Source: a virus
Taxonomy: Duplodnaviria > Heunggongvirae > Uroviricota > Caudoviricetes
DNA length: 27,739 bases
Strand: one strand, 5' to 3'
IMG/VR virus record: IMGVR_UViG_2695420411_000008
Shown here: positions 16,485 through 27,739 of the stretch, piece after piece
Layout: each line of letters opens with the position of its first letter
Numbering within the stretch: position 1 is the stretch's first letter
Position numbers and translations under genes: made by a program
Notes under the pieces: model-generated
What the model was told of the DNA's origin: nothing
What the model saw: the letters and a program-made list of their open reading frames with translations, nothing else
Database searches by the model: none

Positions 16485-16910
16485 ATGGAAATTACTATCA
16501 AGTATCAGCAGTACCGTATCGCTAAGTTAAGCGTTTTCGAACAGCTGAAGGTATCCCGCAAGCTGCTGCCGGTTCTGGCGGGTCTGGTTTCTGACTTCCG
16601 TAACATCCAGACGAAGCTGAATGCCAAAGACACCGAAGGCGCGATGGAAAGTATTCTTCCGAAGATCGCTGGCGCCGTTTCCGGCCTCAGTGATGATGAT
16701 GTGAATGCGATCCTTTTTCCCTGCCTGCAGGTGGTGGCGCGCAAACACTTGAGCGCCTGGGTGCCGGTGTGCCAGCAGGGCACCATGGCCTTTGACGATA
16801 TCGACCTGTTCGTGATGCTGCAGCTTGTGGCGCGGGTGGTCGCCGATTCGCTGGGAAATTTTTTGCAAGGACTTCCTACCAGCGAGACGAACACCCAGCC
16901 TGCGGAATAA
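16485..16910 (+). CDS. Tail assembly chaperone (G-like, short form)
   Basis: 141-aa ORF immediately upstream of the tape measure gene; slippery sequence near its 3' end. Confidence 0.7.
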   Translation: MEITIKYQQYRIAKLSVFEQLKVSRKLLPVLAGLVSDFRNIQTKLNAKDTEGAMESILPKIAGAVSGLSDDDVNAILFPCLQVVARKHLSAWVPVCQQGTMAFDDIDLFVMLQLVARVVADSLGNFLQGLPTSETNTQPAE

Positions 16911-17098
16911 CCTTTAACACCCTGCCGGGCGGTGAGGATTACATCCTTCGCCCGGCGCTCGCCTTCAACCTCGATCAGAAAGACCTCGACAGCGGTGCAG
17001 TGGACCTGTGCCGCATCGCGCTGCTTAACGATTACCTCGATATGCGTGACGATAACGACGCGCGCGTAGCCAAATGGAGAGCCCAGAACAATGGCTGA
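16485..17098 (+). CDS. Tail assembly chaperone, -1 frameshift fusion product (GT-like long form)
   Basis: GGGAAATTTTTTG at 16853-16865; the -1 frame is open from 16796 to TGA 17096-17098, has no start codon of its own and reads as plausible protein. Confidence 0.55.
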
Positions 17099-19070
17099 TA
17101 CTATCCGTGATTACCTGGTCTCTCTGGGGTTCGATATCGACGGCGCGGGCCAGGCGAAGTTTGAAGCCACGCTCAAAGGTGTGGCCGCGAACGTCGTAAA
17201 ACTGGGGGCCATAGTTGAGTCGACGGGGCTGGCCATTGTGGGCTTCACCGCCTCGATCGCCAGCGGCCTTGATAAACTCTACTGGGCCGCGGAACGCACC
17301 GGGGCATCGGTCAACGGCATCAAGGCGCTTGGCTATGCTGCCTCACAAACCGGCTCCAGCGCCGAGGCTGCCCAGAACTCACTGGAGAGCCTGGCGCGCT
17401 TCATGCGCAGCAATCCCGGCGCCGAAGGCTTCCTGAACCGCCTGGGGGTGCAGACCCGGGACGCTTCCGGACAGATGCGCGACATGTCGGCTATCTTCAC
17501 CGGCGTCGGCCAGCGCCTCAGCAGCATGCCCTATTATCGAGCCAATCAGTTCGCGCAGATGCTGGGCATTGACGAAAACACGCTGATGGCAATGCGGCGA
17601 GGAATGTCCGGCTTCACGGCTGAATACCAGTCGATGATGCAGAAGACAGGCTTCGATGCTGACAGGGCCGCGCAGCAGTCCAACAAGTTCATGACCTCAA
17701 TGCGCAACTTCGTTTCGCTACTGGGGATCTTGCGCGATAAGGTTGGCTCGAATCTGGCCGGCGGCCTGAGCGGCACGCTGAACAATCTCAGCAAGCAGAT
17801 GCTGGAGAACTGGCCGAAGATAGAGGGCGTGGTCACGAAGATAGTGAAGGGGGTGCTCTTTGCTGCTGATGTCATTACCCAGATGGCGTGGCGCGTCTCG
17901 CAGGCGGTAGGCGGCCTGATTGAGTGGTTTAAAAAGCTGCCGCCGGATATACAGCAGCTAATCATGCTGGTGTCCGGGCTGGTTTCGGCGTGGCAGCTGC
18001 TTAACGCTGAGTTCCTCAAATCGCCGATAGGTATCGTAATCGCGCTAGGCTCGGCGCTGTTCGCGCTTTACGACGACTACAAAACCTGGAAAGAAGGCGG
18101 TCAAAGCCTGCTGCCCTGGGATAAATGGGAGCCAGAAATAGAGGCTGCCCTGAAATCGCTTGGCGAGCTGCGGGATTCTGTGAAGGCGATAGGGGTTGAA
18201 ATCGCAAAGCTGCTCAATATCAACCTCAAAAACTGGACCCTTAAAGGCGACATCGACAACCTCACTAAGCAGTTCGGTGAGTTTGGCAAGATGATTAAGA
18301 TGATTGGCGACCTGATAAACGCCATCAACGAGGGGCGTTGGAAAGATGCTTATGCGATCGGCAAGAACCTGCTGGCACAAGGGCAAGGCCAGGATGCTCT
18401 ACCTGCAGTATCTGACAGCGCTAACAATACTGCTGACTGGATAGAGGGCAAGACGGGGTTCGACCCGCGAAGCATCGGGAAAACAATAAACGGGTGGATT
18501 TTCGGCAAAGAAGAGGGCGGCTCAGACCAGCAGGAGAGCGGCCCGGGCAAGACGCTGGCCGACCGTAACAACAATCCTGGCAACCTGCGCCCCGTCGGCG
18601 GCACCGGTTTTACCTCTCATCAGACGCCGCTTGATGGTTGGATGGCAATGGCCAGGCAGATCCGTCTTTATTTCACCGGAAAAAGCGCGGCCGCCGGGTA
18701 TGAAAAACTCCAGTCAATATGGGACATCATCCACAAATACGCACCTGCCAGCGACAACAACGACCCCGAGGCCTATTCGAACTTCGTAGCCAATATGATG
18801 GGCGTGGGCGCTAAGGACACGCTGAACCTGAGCGACCCGCAGCAGTTCAGCAACCTTCTGCAGGCCATGTCCAGGAAGGAAGGTTACGGTCAGTGGAATT
18901 CCCCATTGGCCAGCGTTGCCGCTACGCAGGCAGCCGCGCAGATCAGCCAGGAAACGAACATCAATATTTACGGCGCGAGCGACCCGGCATCCACTGGCCG
19001 GGAGGTTGCCGATCGTCAATCCGGCGTTAATTCCCGTCTTACTCAGCAGCTACAACCGAGGGTCTACTGA
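17091..19070 (+). CDS. Tail tape measure protein
   Basis: 659-aa largely helical protein directly after the chaperone pair; distinct C-terminal globular region with NNNPGNLR motif. Confidence 0.85.
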   Translation: MADTIRDYLVSLGFDIDGAGQAKFEATLKGVAANVVKLGAIVESTGLAIVGFTASIASGLDKLYWAAERTGASVNGIKALGYAASQTGSSAEAAQNSLESLARFMRSNPGAEGFLNRLGVQTRDASGQMRDMSAIFTGVGQRLSSMPYYRANQFAQMLGIDENTLMAMRRGMSGFTAEYQSMMQKTGFDADRAAQQSNKFMTSMRNFVSLLGILRDKVGSNLAGGLSGTLNNLSKQMLENWPKIEGVVTKIVKGVLFAADVITQMAWRVSQAVGGLIEWFKKLPPDIQQLIMLVSGLVSAWQLLNAEFLKSPIGIVIALGSALFALYDDYKTWKEGGQSLLPWDKWEPEIEAALKSLGELRDSVKAIGVEIAKLLNINLKNWTLKGDIDNLTKQFGEFGKMIKMIGDLINAINEGRWKDAYAIGKNLLAQGQGQDALPAVSDSANNTADWIEGKTGFDPRSIGKTINGWIFGKEEGGSDQQESGPGKTLADRNNNPGNLRPVGGTGFTSHQTPLDGWMAMARQIRLYFTGKSAAAGYEKLQSIWDIIHKYAPASDNNDPEAYSNFVANMMGVGAKDTLNLSDPQQFSNLLQAMSRKEGYGQWNSPLASVAATQAAAQISQETNINIYGASDPASTGREVADRQSGVNSRLTQQLQPRVY

Positions 19071-19645
19071 TGGATATTTTATCGGTCATCTTCCGGCTGC
19101 AGTCTCGGAAAATAGGTATTTTTGTACCTGACGTGGTGGTGTCGGAGAAGCATGTTGATGCCCTGGAAATCACTGAACATCCGGTGGAGTTTGGCGCCGC
19201 CATAAACGACCACGCCTATAAGCGCGCCAGCGAGGTCACTATGGAGTGCGGGTTTGCCGGCGGCGGGTCGGTACTCGACCTGGTAAATCTGTCCAGCATA
19301 GGCTTGCGGGTTGGCGAGAGCCCAAGGGAGATTTATCAGCAGTTGCTGGATCTGCAGAAATCCCGGGTGCCGTTTGATGTTGTTACCGGCAAGCGCACCT
19401 ACAGCAATATGCTGATACGCGCTATCGAGGCCACGACGGACCGAACCAGCGAAAATGTGCTGTCATGCGTTCTGACGCTGCGGGAAGTGATCATGTCGGA
19501 TACGCAGAGCATCACTGTTACGGATAAGGCCAACATGCAGGAGGGAGTCAGCACCGCGCCAGTACAGAATACAGGGATGAAATCTCTGGTGCCGACCAGC
19601 AGCTCATCTGTAATTCAAAAGATAGCCGATTTTGCGAGGGGATAA
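19070..19645 (+). CDS. Tail/baseplate assembly protein (distal tail region)
   Basis: ATG overlaps tape-measure stop (TGATG); position only. Confidence 0.5.
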   Translation: MDILSVIFRLQSRKIGIFVPDVVVSEKHVDALEITEHPVEFGAAINDHAYKRASEVTMECGFAGGGSVLDLVNLSSIGLRVGESPREIYQQLLDLQKSRVPFDVVTGKRTYSNMLIRAIEATTDRTSENVLSCVLTLREVIMSDTQSITVTDKANMQEGVSTAPVQNTGMKSLVPTSSSSVIQKIADFARG

Positions 19646-19950
19646 TGAGCGTTAATGAGATTCCGATGATCCCTGATAACCAGGAGTTTCGCATCACCCT
19701 GGGCGACATAAGCTACACGCTCCGCGTGCTATGGCGCGACGATGCTGGCTGGATAATGGACGTTATGGATAGCGGCGCGCAGCCTCTGTTAATGGGCGTC
19801 CCCCTGGTGCCGGGGGTTAACCTTTTGGCTCAGTATCCGGATCTGGGGATATCTGGCGCACTGGTGGTCATGACAGACAACGGAGCCCCTGAATACCCGA
19901 CGAAAACAAACCTTGGTGCCTCGAGCCATCTTTATTTTGTTCAGGAATAG
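19645..19950 (+). CDS. Small baseplate-associated protein
   Basis: ATGA overlap with upstream stop; 101 aa; position only. Confidence 0.45.
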   Translation: MSVNEIPMIPDNQEFRITLGDISYTLRVLWRDDAGWIMDVMDSGAQPLLMGVPLVPGVNLLAQYPDLGISGALVVMTDNGAPEYPTKTNLGASSHLYFVQE

Positions 19951-19953
19951 CCC

Positions 19954-21024
19954 ATGACTATTAACTGGAATCGCCATTTTGAACTGCGGCTTCTGAACGA
20001 CAAGGGGAATGGCATATCCCTGTCGGACTTTAAAGTTACCTTCGCAATCGACTGGTTTAACTCGATGTGGCCACGTGTGGCGACGCTTAAAATTTACAAC
20101 CTCAAGCGTGACACAATCACCCGGATTACGGGGGATGAGTTTTCTCGCATTACCATCATAGCCGGTTATAACGGCCTGGCGCCGACGGTTACTGAAAGCG
20201 AGGTTGGGCAGGTTACCGAGATTTCATCTGAGCAAACCGGCCAGACGCGCGGGCAAAATTACGGAGTCATTTTTGATGGGGAGATTCGTTTTACGATAAC
20301 CGGGCGCGATAATCCTACCGATATTTTTACGCTAATTCAGTCGGTAGATGGTCATAAGGCGTTCAACGAAGCCGTATCGTCCGGCAGCCTGGCGGCAGGA
20401 TATAAGCTTGCCGACGTGCATACACTTCTGATGAAGGACTTTTCGCCTTACGGCATCACCCAGGGCATCACCGGGCAGTTCCCTGACAGGGTGATGCCAC
20501 GCGGTCGCGTCTTCTTCGGCGCAACGCGCGACTACATGAGCAACCTAGCGGCGCAGTGCGAGGCTAACTGGCAATTTGTCGACGGCCAGCTGCAAATGGT
20601 GCCTGAGAATAAATATCTCCATGAAGCGATCGTGCTTAACACCAAAACTGGCCTGGTCGGTATGCCTCAGCAAACCATGGGGGCAGGCGTTAATGTGCGC
20701 TGTCTCATTAATCCAAACATTCGGGTTAACGGGCTTATTCAGTTGAACCAGGACTCGGTGTATCGCTCGCAATTACCGAACGATGAGATCCAAAGATCAC
20801 AGGCAAGGATTACTGAGGCAAATGATAATGGTAATCTTAGTACAGGCAGCGCGACGCTTGCGCAGCCCGCCAGTGTGGCAACTGATGGCGTTTACATAGT
20901 TCAGTCAATCAGCTACACCGGCGATACGAGAGGGAATCCGTGGTATATGGATCTCATGTGTATGGCCAGAGGGGCGCGTGATTTACAATCGAATACGGCC
21001 CTACAGCGAACGGCTCCACAATGA
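19954..21024 (+). CDS. Baseplate hub protein (Mu gp44 / P2 gpD-like)
   Basis: 356-aa ORF preceding the spike, W-like and J-like baseplate genes. Confidence 0.6.
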   Translation: MTINWNRHFELRLLNDKGNGISLSDFKVTFAIDWFNSMWPRVATLKIYNLKRDTITRITGDEFSRITIIAGYNGLAPTVTESEVGQVTEISSEQTGQTRGQNYGVIFDGEIRFTITGRDNPTDIFTLIQSVDGHKAFNEAVSSGSLAAGYKLADVHTLLMKDFSPYGITQGITGQFPDRVMPRGRVFFGATRDYMSNLAAQCEANWQFVDGQLQMVPENKYLHEAIVLNTKTGLVGMPQQTMGAGVNVRCLINPNIRVNGLIQLNQDSVYRSQLPNDEIQRSQARITEANDNGNLSTGSATLAQPASVATDGVYIVQSISYTGDTRGNPWYMDLMCMARGARDLQSNTALQRTAPQ

Positions 21025-21377
21025 AAAAAATACTTTTTTTGGTTTCTTTAGCATTCGTCAGTTTTTCTTCTACAGCGGCAAACACCGCTTATATGAAGTG
21101 TGGTCCCTTTACTTTCTCAACCTCATCAAGCAACGACGGATATCCGAGGATAAACGGAGCAAAGCCTGATAGTCAGAAGGTGACATTCCTCAAAAAAGAG
21201 GGAGATTATGACAATATTAAAATGCAATGGATTGTCATGAATGAGAATTCTGGGCAGCGCTATGGTCTTGATTATATAAAACGCAATGGGAGAGGGATAC
21301 TCAATGCCGAGGCCATCAGAATGAACATGAATGAACCTCGAGTGTTTGGAACTTACGACTGCGTGAAGGCTAAGTAA
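21021..21377 (+). CDS. Secreted hypothetical protein (118 aa) in an AT-rich insertion
   Basis: ATGA overlap with hub stop; signal peptide MKKILFLVSLAFVSFSSTAA; two Cys (27 and 114); AT-rich relative to flanking tail genes. Confidence 0.6.
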   Translation: MKKILFLVSLAFVSFSSTAANTAYMKCGPFTFSTSSSNDGYPRINGAKPDSQKVTFLKKEGDYDNIKMQWIVMNENSGQRYGLDYIKRNGRGILNAEAIRMNMNEPRVFGTYDCVKAK

Positions 21378-21387
21378 TTTAATAAAG

Positions 21388-21408
21388 GCGCCGGAACTAC
21401 CGGCGCTC
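21388..21408. terminator. Hairpin shared by the convergent inserted genes
   Basis: GGCGCCGG / AACTA / CCGGCGC(T) stem-loop between convergent stops; T-rich tract on the minus-strand side. Confidence 0.5.
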
Positions 21409-21410
21409 AG

Positions 21411-21761
21411 TTACTCGTCTTTAAAACTTATAATTTTGTACTGCTCCAGTACTTCTGAAAGCTCCTTTGATGTCAGATTTTGTATTTCGATCGTACCTTT
21501 TTCAGTGGTTACCGTTATTTTTTTTGATGATCTGGTCTGTAACCATTTTCTCGCTATCGATGCAATGGCGATACAAGCTGGTGATGATGTGATAACGGTA
21601 ATAGATATTTCGAGAATTGTGCCAATAGCGCCAGGAGAATCACCCGTTCTGACTCTTTTACTTACTACATAGTCATTAGCGGGTATGTTATCCTGGATTA
21701 CAGGAAGTAACTCTTTCCAAATAGCTGGAGTAAATTTTATGGTTGTTTCTGATTTTGGCAT
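21411..21761 (-). CDS. Hypothetical membrane protein (116 aa), convergent partner in the insertion
   Basis: Minus-strand ORF with a central hydrophobic segment AIGTILEISITVITSSPACIAIASIA; weak RBS; AT-rich. Confidence 0.45.
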   Translation of the reverse strand: MPKSETTIKFTPAIWKELLPVIQDNIPANDYVVSKRVRTGDSPGAIGTILEISITVITSSPACIAIASIARKWLQTRSSKKITVTTEKGTIEIQNLTSKELSEVLEQYKIISFKDE

Positions 21762-21941
21762 AAAGGTTTCAGGCCCCTATCGAGAGAAGCTAAAAATTGC
21801 CTACCGGCTTTTCCTTAGCAGCCTGTATCTTGCTACAAATCACGACGTTACCGTGGTTCTAAGCAAAACCTATATTAAGAGCTGCAATGAAGATAAATAG
21901 CACGCATTAACTCACCCTCAAATCCTGACATTTGATCAGTA

Positions 21942-21962
21942 ACCCGCCTCGGCGGGTTTTTT
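21942..21962 (+). terminator. Intrinsic terminator upstream of the baseplate spike gene
   Basis: ACCCGCC-TC-GGCGGGT hairpin followed by TTTTTT, 18 nt before the ATG at 21980. Confidence 0.6.
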
Positions 21963-21979
21963 ATTACCTGGAGAAAGCT

Positions 21980-22633
21980 ATGCCAGTATCAGCCCGCGCG
22001 CAGGACGGCAACGAATCGCAGACTCTTGAGGCGCACCGCCACGCCATTTTCGGCAGCCTGCGCGTGGCTTTGCCGGGGATCATCCAGTCCTTTGACCCTG
22101 AAACAGTGACATGCACCGTGCAGCCAGCCATCTACGGTCAGCGGCTCAGCGACGATGGCGCTCTGGTTTCTGAGGAGATACCGATTTTGCCAGACGTTCC
22201 AGTGGTGTTCCCCCGCGGCGGTGGCTGCACGTTAACCTTCCCGGTAAAGGCCGGTGACGAGTGCCTCCTGGTCTTCTCCGATCGCTGCATCGACTTCTGG
22301 TGGCAGAGCGGCGGGGGGCAGGAACCGGTTGACCCGCGCCAGCATGACCTGAGTGATGCGTTTGCCATTGTGGGTCCGCAGTCGCAGGCGCAGAAAATCA
22401 GCAGCATCAGTACCAGTGCGGTTGAACTGCGCAGTGACGACGGTGGAACAAAACTGAGCCTTAACCCTTCATCCGGAGCGATAACGGGAACCGCGCCGGG
22501 AGGCTTCAACCTTAACGGTCTGAAAATTCTGCCTGACGGCCGCCTGCAGCTGGTGGATGGCTCCATGGTTGATAAGCATACGCATGGCGGCGTGGAAGTC
22601 GGCGGCAGCAATACGAAACCACTGGGAGGGTAA
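21980..22633 (+). CDS. Baseplate spike / assembly protein V-like
   Basis: GGAGA RBS then ATG at 21980; the ORF-track start at 21932 would run through the terminator hairpin; position before the W- and J-like genes. Confidence 0.7.
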   Translation: MPVSARAQDGNESQTLEAHRHAIFGSLRVALPGIIQSFDPETVTCTVQPAIYGQRLSDDGALVSEEIPILPDVPVVFPRGGGCTLTFPVKAGDECLLVFSDRCIDFWWQSGGGQEPVDPRQHDLSDAFAIVGPQSQAQKISSISTSAVELRSDDGGTKLSLNPSSGAITGTAPGGFNLNGLKILPDGRLQLVDGSMVDKHTHGGVEVGGSNTKPLGG

Positions 22634-22635
22634 TT

Positions 22636-22989
22636 ATGCGATACCGACGCGAAGACGACGACGGGGACTACACCTTCGGCCAGGGCGATGACACCTTTCT
22701 GGTCAACTCACCCGAGTGCGTGGCCCAGGCCGTTAAAACGCGCTTTGAACTGTGGAAGGGGCAATGGTTTCTGGACACAACCGAGGGCACACCCTATATC
22801 CAGTCGGTTCTGGGAAAGCAAAGGCCTGAGGTTTATAACCTTGCGATCAGGGATCGCATCAGCACCACACCTGGCGTTCTGTCCATACTGGCCTTTGATA
22901 CCGTGAATGAAAGCACGACACGCCGGGTAACGTTCACAGCCACCATAAACACTATCTACGGACAAACCACCCTTACCAGCGAGGCATAA
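22636..22989 (+). CDS. Baseplate protein W-like (GPW/gp25 family)
   Basis: 117-aa ORF between the V-like and J-like genes. Confidence 0.7.
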   Translation: MRYRREDDDGDYTFGQGDDTFLVNSPECVAQAVKTRFELWKGQWFLDTTEGTPYIQSVLGKQRPEVYNLAIRDRISTTPGVLSILAFDTVNESTTRRVTFTATINTIYGQTTLTSEA

Positions 22990-24189
22990 ATGGCCCTCAA
23001 TTTGGACACGCTCGGCTTATCGGCAACGGTAACCGCTGAGGGGATCAGCGCGCCTGATTACCAGACAATACTGGACACCCTGACCAACTACTTTAAGCAG
23101 ATATATGGCAGCGATGCTTATCTGGATCCTGACAGCAAAGACGGGCAGATGGTGGCGCTGGTGGCCCTGGCTATTCACGATGCTAACAACACGGCCATTG
23201 CTGTTTACAACAGCTTTTCGCCTGCCACCGCTTATGGCGCAGGGCTGAGCAAGAACGTGAAAATAAACGGTATTAAAAGGAGAACGGCTACCAACTCAAC
23301 GGTTGATTTGCTGCTTACCGGCGCGGCCGGTACGACCATTTCGAATGGCTCCGTCAGGGATAAGAATGGCCTGGTCTGGAGCATGCCGGCTTCCGTGGTA
23401 ATTGGTTTAGACGGGACGGCGACGGTCACTGCCACCTGCTCAAATAGCGGCGCAGTGGCCGCGCTGTCCGGAACGGTCACGACCATTAACACACCGACCC
23501 GCGGCTGGACTTCGGTAACTAACCCCGCGGCGGCCACCGTCGGATCCCCGGCGGAAACCGACGCAGAGCTGCGCATCCGGCAGGGGCAGAGTGTCGCGCT
23601 ACCCTCCATCACGCCGTTTGAAGGGGTGGACGGCGCGATAGTGAACGTTGCAGGGGTTACACGTCACAAGCTCTACGAGAATGATACCGGCACGACCGAC
23701 AGTAATGGGCTGCCGCCACACTCTATCTCTGCCATCGTGGATGGCGGCGATCTGACTGAAATCGCCCAGGCCATCCGGGGCAATAAGGGGCAGGGGGTGT
23801 CAACGTATGGTGCGACAGCCGTCACGGTGCCGGATAAATACGGTAATCCCCATGTGATTCGCTTCTCCCGGTCAACGGATGTTCCTATTTATGGACATAT
23901 AACGCTGAAAGCTTTCGCGGGTTACACATCACAAATAGGTAAGGAGATTCAGCAGGCCGTTGCGGATTACATCAACGACCTGACGATCGGTGATTCGGTG
24001 CTGCTGAGCCGCATTTATTCACCTGCCAACCTCGGGGTGGTCAGCGGCGGTAGCGCGCGTTATTACGACATCCAGGAATTACTCATCGGTAAATCAGCAG
24101 GATCCGTAGCATCGGCAAACATAACCATAGCCTACGACGAATCAGCTTCATGTAAACCGGCAAACATCGTTATCACGGTGACGTCATGA
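22990..24189 (+). CDS. Baseplate J-like protein
   Basis: 399-aa ORF following the W-like gene and preceding the I-like gene. Confidence 0.8.
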   Translation: MALNLDTLGLSATVTAEGISAPDYQTILDTLTNYFKQIYGSDAYLDPDSKDGQMVALVALAIHDANNTAIAVYNSFSPATAYGAGLSKNVKINGIKRRTATNSTVDLLLTGAAGTTISNGSVRDKNGLVWSMPASVVIGLDGTATVTATCSNSGAVAALSGTVTTINTPTRGWTSVTNPAAATVGSPAETDAELRIRQGQSVALPSITPFEGVDGAIVNVAGVTRHKLYENDTGTTDSNGLPPHSISAIVDGGDLTEIAQAIRGNKGQGVSTYGATAVTVPDKYGNPHVIRFSRSTDVPIYGHITLKAFAGYTSQIGKEIQQAVADYINDLTIGDSVLLSRIYSPANLGVVSGGSARYYDIQELLIGKSAGSVASANITIAYDESASCKPANIVITVTS

Positions 24190-24866
24190 GTAGGTACACG
24201 GATCTAATCACTAACTACCACGCCACTAAGCCGAAATACCTCGATCACATCGATCTTAGTACCCGTCCCCTGATTGATATCACGTCAGCCACAAGGGGCC
24301 TGGTGAGTGCGTTTGACATTGATACGGCTGTTGGCGTGCAACTCGATATTCTCGGACTCTGGATTGGACGTAGCCGTATAGTCAGCCAGCCCATTAGTGG
24401 CGTTTATTTCAGTTGGGACACGGAGGGGCTCGGATATGACCAGGGCGTATGGCAGGGGCCATATGATCCTGACTCCGGCTATACGACGCTTAGCGATGAT
24501 ACCTATCGCACTATTCTGAAAGCAAAAATCGCTATTAACAACTGGGACGGGCGTAACGACTCGCTTCCGGACATTCTTGACACTGCCACAGTGGGTTCGG
24601 GCCTGAAGATGCAGATCGTCGACAATCAGGACATGACGATATCGGTCTGGGTATTTCCCGAGACTGATATTTCTGATGTGTCTCTCGAACTGATCGCCGC
24701 TATCAAACAGGGCTATCTCACCGTTAAAGCCGCTGGCGTCTGGGCCGGTGATGTTGAAATGCCTTCGGTTGAAACACCGTCCGAAGGAACAAAATTCTTT
24801 GGATTTGACATGGATAACGAATACATCGCCGGTTTTGATGACGGCGCATGGGGGAGATTACTTTAA
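24186..24866 (+). CDS. Tail protein I-like (baseplate wedge)
   Basis: 226-aa ORF overlapping J stop and tail-fibre start. Confidence 0.6.
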   Translation: MSRYTDLITNYHATKPKYLDHIDLSTRPLIDITSATRGLVSAFDIDTAVGVQLDILGLWIGRSRIVSQPISGVYFSWDTEGLGYDQGVWQGPYDPDSGYTTLSDDTYRTILKAKIAINNWDGRNDSLPDILDTATVGSGLKMQIVDNQDMTISVWVFPETDISDVSLELIAAIKQGYLTVKAAGVWAGDVEMPSVETPSEGTKFFGFDMDNEYIAGFDDGAWGRLL

Positions 24867-25645
24867 TGGCTGGAACTAATGATTTTAAAGCGTTTGCGAC
24901 AGATGCTAATGCAAATGTTACCTCGCAGGAGGAATGGGAGACGCTAACCGCACTGAAGAAAGGATTCTCCTCGGGTAAAGCATCCAGCGCACAGGTCAGT
25001 AAAGCGCTGCGCCAACCGTCGACGATGGCGGCTGTACTGGGGCAGTTTATCGCGAACGCCGAACTGGACGCGCTCGATGATGGTGACGTTGATGGACTGG
25101 TGGCAAAGCTGGCGACAGCGATTACCACAAACCTTGGTTTGGGAGAAGGCTCAGCATTACCCGTTGGCGTACCTGTTCCGTGGCCTTCAGCCACACCGCC
25201 GACAGGCTGGCTGAAATGCAACGGTGCCGCTTTTTCTGCTGAAGAATACCCGGAACTGGCAAAGGCTTACCCGACAAATAAATTGCCTGATTTACGTGGT
25301 GAGTTTATTCGTGGCTGGGATGACGGGCGTGGAGTGGATAGCGGTCGTACTTTATTAACGAATCAAGAGCATGCAGTAATTTCTCATAATCATGGAATAC
25401 CTACAAAAGTGGGGTCAGTTACTAATATCCCGTATGGAATAGAACAGGTTATATCTGATGAAACCATTTTTTCATCAGCAAAAACAGTTGGTGTGGATTA
25501 CTGGTCTAACAGTGAAAGAGTTTTTACTTATACCTCTGGTGGAAGAAATGGTGCTGAATCAGTGAGTTCACCTGATGCCTCCTCTTTAATTAAAGAAACC
25601 AGACCACGGAACCTAGCATTTGCGTATATCGTGAGGGCTGCATAA
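24866..25645 (+). CDS. Tail fibre protein: constant N-terminal part fused to the currently expressed variable C-terminal domain
   Basis: GGGGGAG RBS 9 nt before ATG 24866 (ATG overlaps upstream stop); C-terminal PWP...GWLKCNG...LPDLRGEFIRGWDDGRG collar-type receptor-binding domain; crossover site inside the gene. Confidence 0.75.
   Translation: MAGTNDFKAFATDANANVTSQEEWETLTALKKGFSSGKASSAQVSKALRQPSTMAAVLGQFIANAELDALDDGDVDGLVAKLATAITTNLGLGEGSALPVGVPVPWPSATPPTGWLKCNGAAFSAEEYPELAKAYPTNKLPDLRGEFIRGWDDGRGVDSGRTLLTNQEHAVISHNHGIPTKVGSVTNIPYGIEQVISDETIFSSAKTVGVDYWSNSERVFTYTSGGRNGAESVSSPDASSLIKETRPRNLAFAYIVRAA
25122..25147. promoter_or_regulatory. Left inversion crossover site (hix/gix-like, 26 bp)
   Basis: TTACCACAAACC-TT-GGTTTGGGAGAA; the 14-bp core TTGGTTTGGGAGAA (25134-25147) is a perfect inverted copy of 27106-27119. 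Confidence 0.6.
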
Positions 25646-26247
25646 TGGTGAAAGCAAAATTAAACAGTGCGTTTATTGCCACCGTGGCAGGTGAAATCAC
25701 TGTGTACAACTACCGGGGCGACACCCGCGAATACATATCCTCATCGGTTGAGTATCTGCCTGTGGGGGTGGGTATTCCTGCCAATTCCTGTACCGATGCG
25801 CCCGGCACACATAAAGCTGGTTATGCAATCTGCCGTTCTGCAGATTTTAACTCATGGGAATATGTGCCAGACCATCGCGGTGAAACGGTATATAGCACTG
25901 AAACAGGAGAATCAAAAGAAATCACAGCTCCGGGTGATTACTCTGAAAATACAACTACTATCGCCCCGTTAACGCCATTCGATAAATGGGATGGTGAGAA
26001 ATGGGTGACCGATACTGAGGCACAGCATAGCGCCGCAGTAGACGTGGCAGAAGCACAGCGCCAGTCGCTGATTGATGCTGCTATGGCTTCCATCAGTCTG
26101 ATTCAGCTGAAATTGCAGGCCGGGCGGCAACTGACGCAAGCAGAAATCACTCGCCTTAACGCTGTGCTGGATTACATTGACACGGTGACGGCAACAGATA
26201 CCAGCACCGCGCCGGATGTCATCTGGCCTGAACTGCCGGAGGCGTAG
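25645..26247 (+). CDS. Tail fibre assembly protein (Tfa, active orientation)
   Basis: ATG overlaps tail-fibre stop; conserved C-terminal DTSTAPDVIWPELPEA motif shared with the minus-strand paralogue. Confidence 0.75.
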   Translation: MVKAKLNSAFIATVAGEITVYNYRGDTREYISSSVEYLPVGVGIPANSCTDAPGTHKAGYAICRSADFNSWEYVPDHRGETVYSTETGESKEITAPGDYSENTTTIAPLTPFDKWDGEKWVTDTEAQHSAAVDVAEAQRQSLIDAAMASISLIQLKLQAGRQLTQAEITRLNAVLDYIDTVTATDTSTAPDVIWPELPEA

Positions 26248-26662
26248 GCCATTCAATATCTGGAGCACTGGAGGTATCAACCAGTTCCAGTGCGTCCAGA
26301 TAATCCAGCCACAAATTATATTGCGCCAGTTCCTCACTTTTCAGACGACCAATCGCCGCTTTGCCAGGCCACTGATGAGTATTGATGTAGGTATTGACTT
26401 CAGAAACCAAAGATATTTTTTTCATTTCAGCCGTCAACACCTCATCCTCTTTTGAAGGGGGTGGGGAATTAATCCATACTGGCCGTCCTGAACTGTCAGC
26501 GCCAATTTCTTTCCCTTCTGGATGCAGCCCAAGAAATTGCTCATATGTTTCTCTGGTAATTTCAATAACATCATCAGGAAGCGTTCCCGCATCCTCATAT
26601 TCTGGAAACAATTCTTGCAGATAAAAACTTTTACTTCCGGGTGAAAAGAATACTGAGTTCAT
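26219..26662 (-). CDS. Tail fibre assembly protein (Tfa', alternative orientation)
   Basis: Convergent with tfa, overlapping by 29 nt; C-terminal DTSSAPDIEWPTPP motif parallels Tfa. Confidence 0.7.
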   Translation of the reverse strand: MNSVFFSPGSKSFYLQELFPEYEDAGTLPDDVIEITRETYEQFLGLHPEGKEIGADSSGRPVWINSPPPSKEDEVLTAEMKKISLVSEVNTYINTHQWPGKAAIGRLKSEELAQYNLWLDYLDALELVDTSSAPDIEWPTPPAVQAR

Positions 26663-26664
26663 TC

Positions 26665-27119
26665 TTACCGTCCAATGATTAATGCTGAGACGCTGGTATC
26701 TGAAGGAAAGGCTGCATTCAGTGGTTTGTCGACTTTGAACACAATCGTATTATTCCCCCTGACAGCGGCAAAAGAACAAACCGCAGTCGCGTATGAACCT
26801 GTAATATTACTGGATACACCACCATAAGCTGTTGTTGATACCAGAGGGATAACGCCCAGCACCTTATTAGGAAATACAAAGGGCAATGTGGCTGTGGCAA
26901 TATAAGACTTATTAGAACCTGTAATGGCATAAGCATTATCAGTCATTCCATTCATCGCCACCGGGCCGCTTATACTTACAGTAACCATCTGAATGATTAG
27001 CCCGTCAGGTTGACGAATCACAAAATTTCCATTGCCACCAGTAACCGTCCAGAAAGACATATCAGGGATTTGGTTTTCCCCGTTGCCCACATTCCGTTTT
27101 GCCGCTTCTCCCAAACCAA
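26665..27119 (-). CDS. Alternative tail-fibre C-terminal cassette (Sv'), currently lacking its own start
   Basis: Minus-strand frame open from the right crossover site; reads KVGLGEAAK across the core, matching NLGLGEGS at the left site, so inversion would fuse it in frame to the constant part. Confidence 0.65.
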
Positions 27120-27131
27120 CCTTTTTTATAA
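27106..27131. promoter_or_regulatory. Right inversion crossover site (hix/gix-like, 26 bp)
   Basis: TTCTCCCAAACC-AA-CCTTTTTTATAA; closely resembles hixL TTCTTGAAAACCAAGGTTTTTGATAA. Confidence 0.6.
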
Positions 27132-27190
27132 CCATCAAAAATCTGGTGATGCTTCGCCGTTTCTCCTGTTTTCATAACAGGAGAAATCCC

Positions 27191-27739
27191 ATGATTTACG
27201 GTTATGCCCGAGTATCAACAAACCACCAGGACACTGAATTGCAACTAACGGCGCTCAAGTCAGCGGGTTGTGAGAAAATTTTTGAAGAGCATGCCAGCGG
27301 GAGGAAATCGAATCGGCCGGTTCTAAAACGGCTGATCGCCACTATGCAGCCGGGGGATGAACTGGTGGTCTGGAAGCTGGACAGGATAGGCCGCAACGTT
27401 CTGCATGCGCTGTTGATGTTCCAGCAGTTACAGGAAAAGGGTATCAACTTCCGCAGTATTACCGATGGCGTGGATCTCAAAACAGCCAGCGGCCGCTATA
27501 ACTTTCGTAACATCCTTTCCGCAGCACAATATGAATCTGATCTTAATAGCGAACGTACCTTAGCAGGGCTGGCCGTAGCCAGGGCAAAAGGGCGAGTTGG
27601 TGGTCGCAGGCCTAAGTTCACGGATGAGCAATGGCGGGAAATGGGGGAGCGGATGGCAACCGGTGAATCACGACAAAGCGTATCAAAAACGTATGGAGTA
27701 GGGCTCTCAACTCTGTATAAAAAGTTTCCAGCTAGCTGA
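27191..27739 (+). CDS. Serine recombinase, DNA invertase (Hin/Gin/Cin/Pin family)
   Basis: AGGAGA RBS; N-terminal YARVSTNHQD with catalytic Ser, VVWKLDRIGR motif, C-terminal HTH GVGLSTLYKKFPAS; 182 aa, stop at the window end. Confidence 0.9.
   Translation: MIYGYARVSTNHQDTELQLTALKSAGCEKIFEEHASGRKSNRPVLKRLIATMQPGDELVVWKLDRIGRNVLHALLMFQQLQEKGINFRSITDGVDLKTASGRYNFRNILSAAQYESDLNSERTLAGLAVARAKGRVGGRRPKFTDEQWREMGERMATGESRQSVSKTYGVGLSTLYKKFPAS

Follow-up and report, generated by a model that had tools for sequence, protein, structure and literature searches.

A probable invertible tail-fibre switch with a PinL-clade serine invertase at the end of the tail operon of a temperate contractile-tail phage

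The 27,739-nucleotide stretch of caudoviral DNA deposited as IMG/VR record IMGVR_UViG_2695420411_000008 (the whole of which is called the window in what follows) ends in a tail-fibre locus that is very probably a host-range switch with two states, set by inversion as in the Mu G, P1 C and e14 P segments. The locus closes the tail operon of a temperate myophage that is integrated at the phi80 attachment site. This switch appears to be working or to have been working until recently. The constant N-terminal part of the fibre (Sc) lies outside the invertible segment and would be transcribed with the late tail operon. Dimers of a serine invertase of the PinL clade, encoded beside the segment, would bind both 26-bp crossover sites and synapse them, cutting at the 2-bp core (TT/AA), after which half of the tetramer would rotate by 180 degrees. 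The present orientation is predicted to yield the fibre Sc-Sv (collar-type tip, 259 amino acids [aa]) together with the chaperone Tfa, and the inverted one Sc-Sv' (gp53-like tip, 240 aa) together with Tfa', and a lysogen population would in this way release particles of two receptor specificities. A hairpin over the ribosome-binding site of the invertase gene would keep the expression of the enzyme, and hence the inversion rate, low. The invertase encoded in cis is presumably the catalyst, inversion probably takes place in this strain, and the two fibre tips would be expected to bind different receptors.

The two crossover sites (Table 1) are of the Din-group form, inverted 26-bp sequences that share a 2-bp core (TT/AA), and they have in common a perfect 14-bp inverted core, TTGGTTTGGGAGAA, which occurs only twice in the window, once on each strand, and never in 100 dinucleotide-preserving shuffles in which one mismatch was tolerated. 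Compared half-site by half-site with sequences taken from the K-12, P1 and Mu records, the left site has the architecture of e14 pixL (CTCTCGAAAACCTTGGTTTGGGAGAA), P1 cix and Mu gix. This site is kept at every related locus, and the right site is identical in the relatives L001-L003, L007 and L008 and one base off in L004 and L009. A Min-like system with several cassettes was also considered and set aside, no third crossover site being found in the segment or in the rest of the window.

The left site is contained in the tail-fibre open reading frame (ORF), which spans 24848-25645, or 24866-25645 with the start that RefSeq uses in relatives, and the start of Sc overlaps the stop codon of the DUF2612/wedge gene located upstream. 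A minus-strand ORF has the right site at its 5' end, and the residues GLGE are read across the core on both strands (plus strand, ...TNLGLGEGS...; minus strand, ...KKVGLGEAAK...). When the segment is flipped in silico between the core dinucleotides (25134-5 and 27118-9), the native Sc-Sv fibre of 259 aa gives way to an unbroken Sc-Sv' fusion of 240 aa (with the RefSeq-style start), followed by tfa' in the sense orientation. The locus has a constant 5' part outside the segment and two opposed sets of variable part and chaperone inside it, with both fusions in frame. The two chaperone genes converge, overlapping tail to tail by 29 bp, and the two tips, Sv (Collar) and Sv' (gp53-like), share no sequence kinship. 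Sv' reaches 24.4 bits against Pfam Gp53-like_C, just under the cut-off of 24.9, and its module recurs at 99-100% identity in hundreds of Enterobacteriaceae contigs, where it makes up the C-terminus of 247-aa proteins. RefSeq annotates Sv' in relatives as a separate coding sequence ('hypothetical / gp53-like'); its minus-strand ORF contains in-frame TTG and ATG codons at 27138 and 27135, with no Shine-Dalgarno sequence upstream.

Both orientations are found in relatives, with the exchange at the core, as established by comparison between genomes rather than within one culture. The orientation of the window is present in the relatives L002-L004 (strains Res13, CH468, TOK-001) and the opposite one in L007-L009; in strains G3/10 and COL60J, Sc is joined to a gp53-like tip and the collar tip is located toward the invertase. 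The Sc stretch is 100% identical up to 25148 in relatives of both orientations, and pairwise BLAST alignments with the opposite-orientation relatives show flanks that are 99-100% identical and a reversed interior, with alignments that end at position 13 of the site. On a metagenome contig (L017), window stretches 24787-25148 and 27105-27739 recur with 100% identity around a reversed interior, the breakpoints being at 25134 and 27119; a more distant prophage (L010) contains the same flipped junction. In all cases the breakpoints fall inside the 14-15-bp shared core, which is the finest resolution possible. The exact native fusion protein is present in public assemblies (WP_057688093.1, 32 contigs), and so is the exact flipped one (WP_244473369.1, 16 contigs), for whose DNA P0001 (98% identical, from L010) and the metagenome contigs L016 and L017 were used as stand-ins. 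Orientations were counted by junction-specific searches, neighbour-gene annotation having been dropped because its 'hypothetical protein' labels are ambiguous; among the complete E. coli genomes with this Sc, four have it joined to the collar tip and at least five to seven to the gp53-like tip.

A preliminary description of this DNA had already proposed two 26-bp hix/gix-like sites with a perfect 14-bp inverted core, the left one within the tail-fibre ORF, and GLGE read across the core on both strands; the sites are where it placed them, the core is unique to them and the translations agree. It had also predicted that inversion exchanges the C-terminus in frame and brings tfa' into the expressed orientation, which is what the in-silico flip gives and, as regards the C-terminus, what the exact fusion protein in public assemblies bears out. 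The minus-strand ORF does have the right site at its 5' end, as described there, but the term 'startless' has to be dropped in view of the TTG and ATG codons. In the same way, of the 'programmable tail-fibre host-range switch' the invertible switch stands, on both orientations and their core breakpoints, and 'programmable' overstates what is a two-state stochastic switch.

Table 1. Coordinates and supporting matches of the features of the invertible tail-fibre locus (positions in the window)
Feature	Coordinates	Strand	Remarks
Sc, constant N-terminal part (~89 aa) of tail-fibre gene S	24866..25133	+	PHROG 11303 'tail fiber protein', residues 3-88
Left 26-bp crossover site	25122..25147	.	TTACCACAAACC TT GGTTTGGGAGAA; two 12-bp half-sites, 2-bp core 25134-25135
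Invertible segment	25134..27119	.	1,986 bp core to core; breakpoints in reversed relatives
Sv, collar-type C-terminus now joined to Sc	25136..25645	+	Pfam Collar PF07484, E 1.6e-15; PHROGs 3100, 523 tail (collar) fiber
tfa, assembly chaperone for Sv, expressed orientation	25645..26247	+	Pfam Caudo_TAP, E 5.5e-32
tfa', alternative tail-fibre assembly chaperone, silent orientation	26219..26662	-	Pfam Caudo_TAP, E 2.7e-28
Sv', alternative variable C-terminus (150 aa), silent orientation	26665..27117 (ORF on to 27138)	-	PHROG 12714; Gp53-like_C sub-threshold
Right 26-bp crossover site	27106..27131	.	TTCTCCCAAACC AA CCTTTTTTATAA; core 27118-27119
12-bp stem-loop pairing the invertase Shine-Dalgarno (AGGAGA)	27159..27186	+	Perfect stem; IR3 in phi80 record
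Serine DNA invertase, PinL clade, 182 aa, intact	27191..27739	+	Pfam Resolvase + HTH_7; outside segment
Putative enhancer, counterpart of annotated P1 cin enhancer (gene nt 19-90)	27209..27280	.	Position only

The invertase is a member of the small resolvase/invertase class of serine recombinases, with a Resolvase domain (Pfam, E 3.6e-39, 134.6 bits) followed by HTH_7 (E 1.5e-9, 38.3 bits). Over its full length it aligns with the Gin structures 3uj3 (E 1.4e-56) and 4m6f (E ~1e-56) and keeps the equivalents of the catalytic Ser9, Arg7, Arg42 and Arg65/Arg68, the GGRxPK arm and the recognition helix STLYKKFPAS. Its closest relatives are the 'DNA invertase' of mEp237 (100% identity), PinL of phi80 (99.5%) and the enzymes of Citrobacter phage Omnitron (92%), mEpX1 (86%) and SKA5 (79%); between the window and Omnitron, the catalytic domain has a nonsynonymous divergence (dN) of 0 and a synonymous divergence (dS) of 0.03. 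Alignment with the classical enzymes gave 52% identity to Gin, 52% to Cin, 55% to PinE and 45% to Hin (for Hin, the residue numbering was verified with about 20 positions given in PMC4513852 and PMC3798978). Gin, Cin and PinE are 75-82% identical to one another (65-82% when Hin is included), a level of mutual identity characteristic of the Din group that the window invertase does not reach, and its identity to PinR and PinQ is 36%. The helix-E block reads GRYNFRNILSAAQYESDLNSE in the window and GRFFFHVMGALAEMERELI in Gin, Cin and PinE, and in seven aligned sequences of the PinL clade the block GRYNFRNILSAAQYESDLNSERTLAGL is invariant, save single substitutions in two of them. The clade comprises more than 118 clusters at 90% identity, from Escherichia, Citrobacter, Klebsiella, Enterobacter, Salmonella, Serratia, Morganella and other Enterobacterales genera. 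The catalytic N-terminus, the C-terminal helix-turn-helix and the divergent middle part noticed in the preliminary description were all recovered in this way. Its further suggestion of a distinct lineage agrees with the 52-55% identity to Gin, Cin and PinE, and the PinL clade is indeed one, but it had already been deposited and named, as pinL in phi80 and as 'DNA invertase' in mEp237, HK225 and SKA5.

Of the known systems, the P segment of e14 (PinE, E. coli K-12) shares the gene order Sc, Sv-tfa / tfa'-Sv', invertase, and the inner half-site (TTCTCCCAAACC) and the AA/TT core of its pixL and pixR sites are identical to those of the window. The protein identities are 88.5% between Tfa and TfaE, 57% between Sv and StfE and 55% between Tfa' and TfaP; on the other hand, the invertase is 55% identical to PinE, the outer half-sites differ and Sv' is without an e14 counterpart. 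Moreover, e14 is a defective remnant, whereas the window element is an apparently complete myophage. Mu G (Gin) and P1 C (Cin) have the same split S gene, alternative Sv/U and Sv'/U' sets, 26-bp sites and 2-bp core, and their invertase is also placed directly outside the segment and transcribed away from it. They differ in the size of the segment (3.0 kb in Mu and 4.2 kb in P1 as compared to 2.0 kb in the window), in the fibre, which is very short in the window (259 or 240 aa), in the invertase (52% identical to Gin and to Cin) and in that no Fis-site pair is recognisable in the window gene with loose patterns. Salmonella Hin and its H segment share the enzyme family and the site architecture, although Hin flips a promoter and the window system flips coding cassettes. 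In Escherichia phage SKA5 (OR670062), an invertase of the PinL clade, preceded by the same leader hairpin, adjoins a full Sv-tfa / tfa'-Sv' cassette, but the backbone is one with Mu/e14-like baseplate genes, and the integrase, attachment site and constant part are different.

The likeness to e14 bears on the identity of the catalyst, as inversion could be real and be carried out by another Pin-type invertase (PinE, PinQ/PinR or similar) acting in trans from another prophage, PinL itself being inactive or irrelevant. Gin, Cin, Pin and Hin cross-complement. The inner half-sites are those of the P segment, the whole cassette is 93-99.8% identical to cassettes that adjoin other invertases, and inversion of the e14 P segment in trans has been reported (PMC12529663) for PinQ, itself 36-40% identical to the classical invertases. 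Against this explanation, which we consider unlikely, the PinL gene is intact and its catalytic domain strongly conserved, it accompanies the full cassette on at least three different tail backbones, namely in this myophage, in L009 (a locus of siphovirus type) and in the Mu/e14-like SKA5, and the outer half-site and the leader hairpin are conserved along with it.

A second explanation concerns the function for which the switch is selected rather than its mechanism, with which it is compatible: the main role would be host defence in the lysogen, a fibre-derived protein masking a surface receptor against superinfecting phages as has been reported for e14 StfE2. The inverted e14 P segment produces a chimeric Stf protein that blocks T2 adsorption (PMC12529663), and the identities of Tfa and Sv to TfaE and StfE point in the same direction. 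Defence as the main role is nevertheless rather improbable, since, unlike e14, the window contains a complete head, tail and baseplate gene set upstream, so that the fibre is expected on virions, and since the promoter and terminator scans (24600-27739), in which nothing exceeded the shuffle expectation, gave no lysogenic-state expression signal for the fibre gene.

The host-range switch proposed here has also to be weighed against its closest relatives. The invertases of phi80 (pinL), mEp237 and HK225 are 99.5-100% identical proteins, and share with the window the spot beside the phi80-type attachment site, the right-hand site and the leader hairpin (IR3). These siphoviruses, however, keep remnants of the segment, whereas the window has a complete two-cassette switch in a contractile-tail phage. 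phi80 (L005, 5916-6549) and mEp237 (L006) contain a tail-collar pseudogene fragment, pinL and a single right-hand site (TTCTCCCAAACCAACCTTTCAAATAT), that is, a decayed switch, and in phi80 the pinL frame is cut short by a stop codon within the recognition helix. This stop and the decay of the phi80 segment, which mean that members of the PinL clade can be relics, are the first of several points that weigh against a switch active in this strain. The right outer half-site (TTATAAAAAAGG read outward) deviates from the AAACC motif of the other half-sites; the reversed interiors of relatives are 85-96% identical and, hence, are not single-step inversion products of this exact sequence; and a search with the in-silico flipped locus found the exact flipped junction together with this Sv' in no complete E. 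coli genome, only related cassettes being recovered. The 41-mer of the exact flipped junction had no match in the GTDB species representatives. The exact copies of the window that were retrieved (L011, L012) are all in the same orientation, a result of the retrieval mode, and the case for inversion in this strain, which we regard as probable, draws on comparison with relatives. SRR1631198 and the strain of GCA_001412975.1 contain this same locus without a difference. The corresponding alternative, a frozen switch in which sites and invertase are relics and the orientations in relatives reflect old events or homologous cassette replacement, would fit the state of phi80 and mEp237 and the mosaic cassettes, which are exchanged between prophages with homology ending at the sites, but it is very unlikely given that both sites are intact here, as are the ORFs for each tip, each chaperone and the invertase, that both exact fusion proteins occur in many independent assemblies, that orientation differs between 100% identical flanks and that breakpoints are always within the shared core.

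If the PinL-clade invertase drives the switch, its control may differ from that of the classical enzymes. In Hin, Phe105 locks the inactive dimer and Phe106 stabilises the tetramer, both through the Phe88 pocket; mutagenesis identified Phe105 and Met109 as the residues that lock the inactive dimer, and the F105N mutant inverts faster than the wild type and is Fis-independent in vivo, with SOS induction (PMC4513852). Lys47, Arg48 and Lys51, in helix B, clamp the enhancer DNA and are described as uniquely conserved among 15 invertases, and Gln151, Arg154 and Leu155, in helix 1 of the DNA-binding domain, contact Fis and are likewise described as uniquely conserved in Fis-dependent invertases (PMC3798978). 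Of the Hin residues tied to Fis/enhancer control in these two papers, Phe105, Met109, Leu112, Lys51, Gln151, Arg154 and Leu155 are not conserved in the window. The equivalent of Phe105 is Asn104, and it is Asn in all 118 PinL-clade sequences (118/118), in which Met109, Leu112 and His107 are replaced by Ile, Ala and Arg, respectively; Phe88 and Phe106 are kept as Phe87 and Phe105. Lys47 and Arg48 correspond to Lys46 and Arg47 of the window, the position-48 equivalent being variable in the clade (R, K, Q, E and others), and Lys51 corresponds to Ala50, a position that is non-basic in 115 of 118 clade sequences. Finally, Gln151, Arg154 and Leu155 are Glu150, Glu153 and Arg154 in the window, and vary within the clade, whose DNA-binding domains are mosaic. 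The enzyme, therefore, has neither the complete phenylalanine switch nor the complete helix-B basic trio nor the Fis-contact patch found in Fis/enhancer-dependent invertases.

Fis/enhancer-dependent invertases also need a recombinational enhancer in cis, composed of two Fis sites about 48 bp apart. The P1 record annotates that of Cin at nt 19-90 of the cin gene, and the stretch at the same position in the window gene is listed in Table 1. Within it, nt 22-36 (GTATCAACAAACCAC) are gin- and cin-like, and at nt 71-85 (CAGCGGGTTGTGAGA) the outer G and C of gin and cin are missing in the window, phi80, SKA5 and KpGz_1, as read with a loose and degenerate Fis pattern; the scans used three loose consensus patterns, Fis sites being too degenerate for firm calls. 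Synonymous sites showed no excess constraint over the putative enhancer, a comparison confounded by mosaicism (the mEpX1 chimera) and by the near-identity of the closest pair. The mEpX1 invertase (L020, 4001-4549) is itself such a chimera, Gin/Pin-like in its first ~60 residues and identical to the window protein in the remainder, and its 5' DNA retains both gin-type G...C elements, from which it follows that the 5', enhancer-bearing part of invertase genes can be exchanged as a module.

Upstream of the gene, the stem-loop that pairs the Shine-Dalgarno sequence is kept in the window, Omnitron, phi80, mEp237 and SKA5, with one compensatory change of a T-A to a C-G pair, and is not present upstream of gin, cin and pinE. 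The RNA of 27132-27215 folds with -25.5 kcal/mol (z -4.07). This hairpin is likely to be a brake on invertase translation. A smaller hairpin is found at 27144-27159.

Taken together, the residue changes and the hairpin suggest a different control logic in these enzymes, although compensating changes elsewhere in the protein are quite possible. It can be tentatively proposed, as a possibility that we hold to be doubtful, that the PinL-clade invertases form a natural branch with no or far less dependence on the Fis/enhancer complex, because of the invariant Asn at the position of Hin Phe105, the Ile, Ala and Arg at those of Met109, Leu112 and His107, the loss of the third basic residue of helix B, the absence of the Fis-contact patch (in this allele) and a second Fis site without G...C. 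The activity of such enzymes might be held down instead by the conserved hairpin that buries the ribosome-binding site.

The remaining genes of the window place the switch in its context. Upstream are found genes for a Q-type antiterminator, a lysozyme, terminase, portal and major capsid protein, a DUF3383 protein and a KPP10-type structural protein where contractile-tail phages have the sheath and tube genes and, further on, a tape-measure protein and a set of spike, sheath-initiator, Baseplate_J and wedge genes. This head, tail and baseplate content identifies the element as a temperate contractile-tail phage (myophage). The invertase is its last gene, being followed in E. coli relatives, and in two assemblies that are 99.99% identical to 16866-27739, by yciI and then by tonB or other chromosomal genes; the records of phi80 and mEp237 show this to be the phi80 attachment site (yciI/tonB).

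At 80% identity or more, cassettes that match the segment are present in about half of the complete E. coli genomes. The best of these cassettes are 93-99.8% identical across the entire segment and match 25126-27126, almost exactly from site to site, and further matches are found in the phages pro483, HK97 and HK106, in P2-like phages and in Klebsiella phages. In unrelated prophages (P2-like, lambdoid, e14-like) the homology is limited to within a few bases of both sites, which makes the sites the boundaries of horizontally exchanged tail-fibre modules. Tail-fibre cassettes are thus passed between unrelated phages with crossover sites as their boundaries, and the locus adds one more example of host-range hedging in temperate phages through the flipping of tail-fibre tips. 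The mechanism of the switch is a textbook one, and it is the PinL branch of the invertase family that is little studied and uncharacterised. Widespread in Enterobacterales, the clade differs systematically from Hin, Gin and Cin in helix E and in the enhancer-contact residues, providing a natural test of how serine invertases are restrained.

Recognition of the switch has a practical side, as RefSeq treats the silent Sv' as a gene of its own and the two fibre forms as proteins without relation to each other, which would be corrected in about 130 complete E. coli genomes, and as it explains assembly breaks at this locus. Of the 15 members listed for the cluster of the flipped fusion protein, six are partial (102-139 aa), their contig ending shortly past the crossover site, and short-read assemblies behave in this way when both orientations coexist in the sequenced culture.

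Three further observations concern the neighbourhood of the switch. A 116-aa ORF on the minus strand (21414-21761), located amid the baseplate genes, matches Pfam EACC1 (Effector Associated Constant Component 1) with 29.1 bits (cut-off 23.6) and may be a moron or a conflict-system gene within the tail module. At the other end of the window, positions 1-759 encode an ATPase of the ABC-transporter type (ABC_tran, E 1.4e-39) shortly before the genes for a YbcO nuclease and the Q antiterminator, which is an unusual cargo for a lambdoid nin/late-control region. Lastly, E. coli COL60J (L008, 7073-7621) has, about 1 kb past yciI and beside a DNA adenine methyltransferase gene, another 'recombinase family protein' gene of equal length, which suggests that a further prophage at this locus, in tandem or close by, has an invertase of its own.

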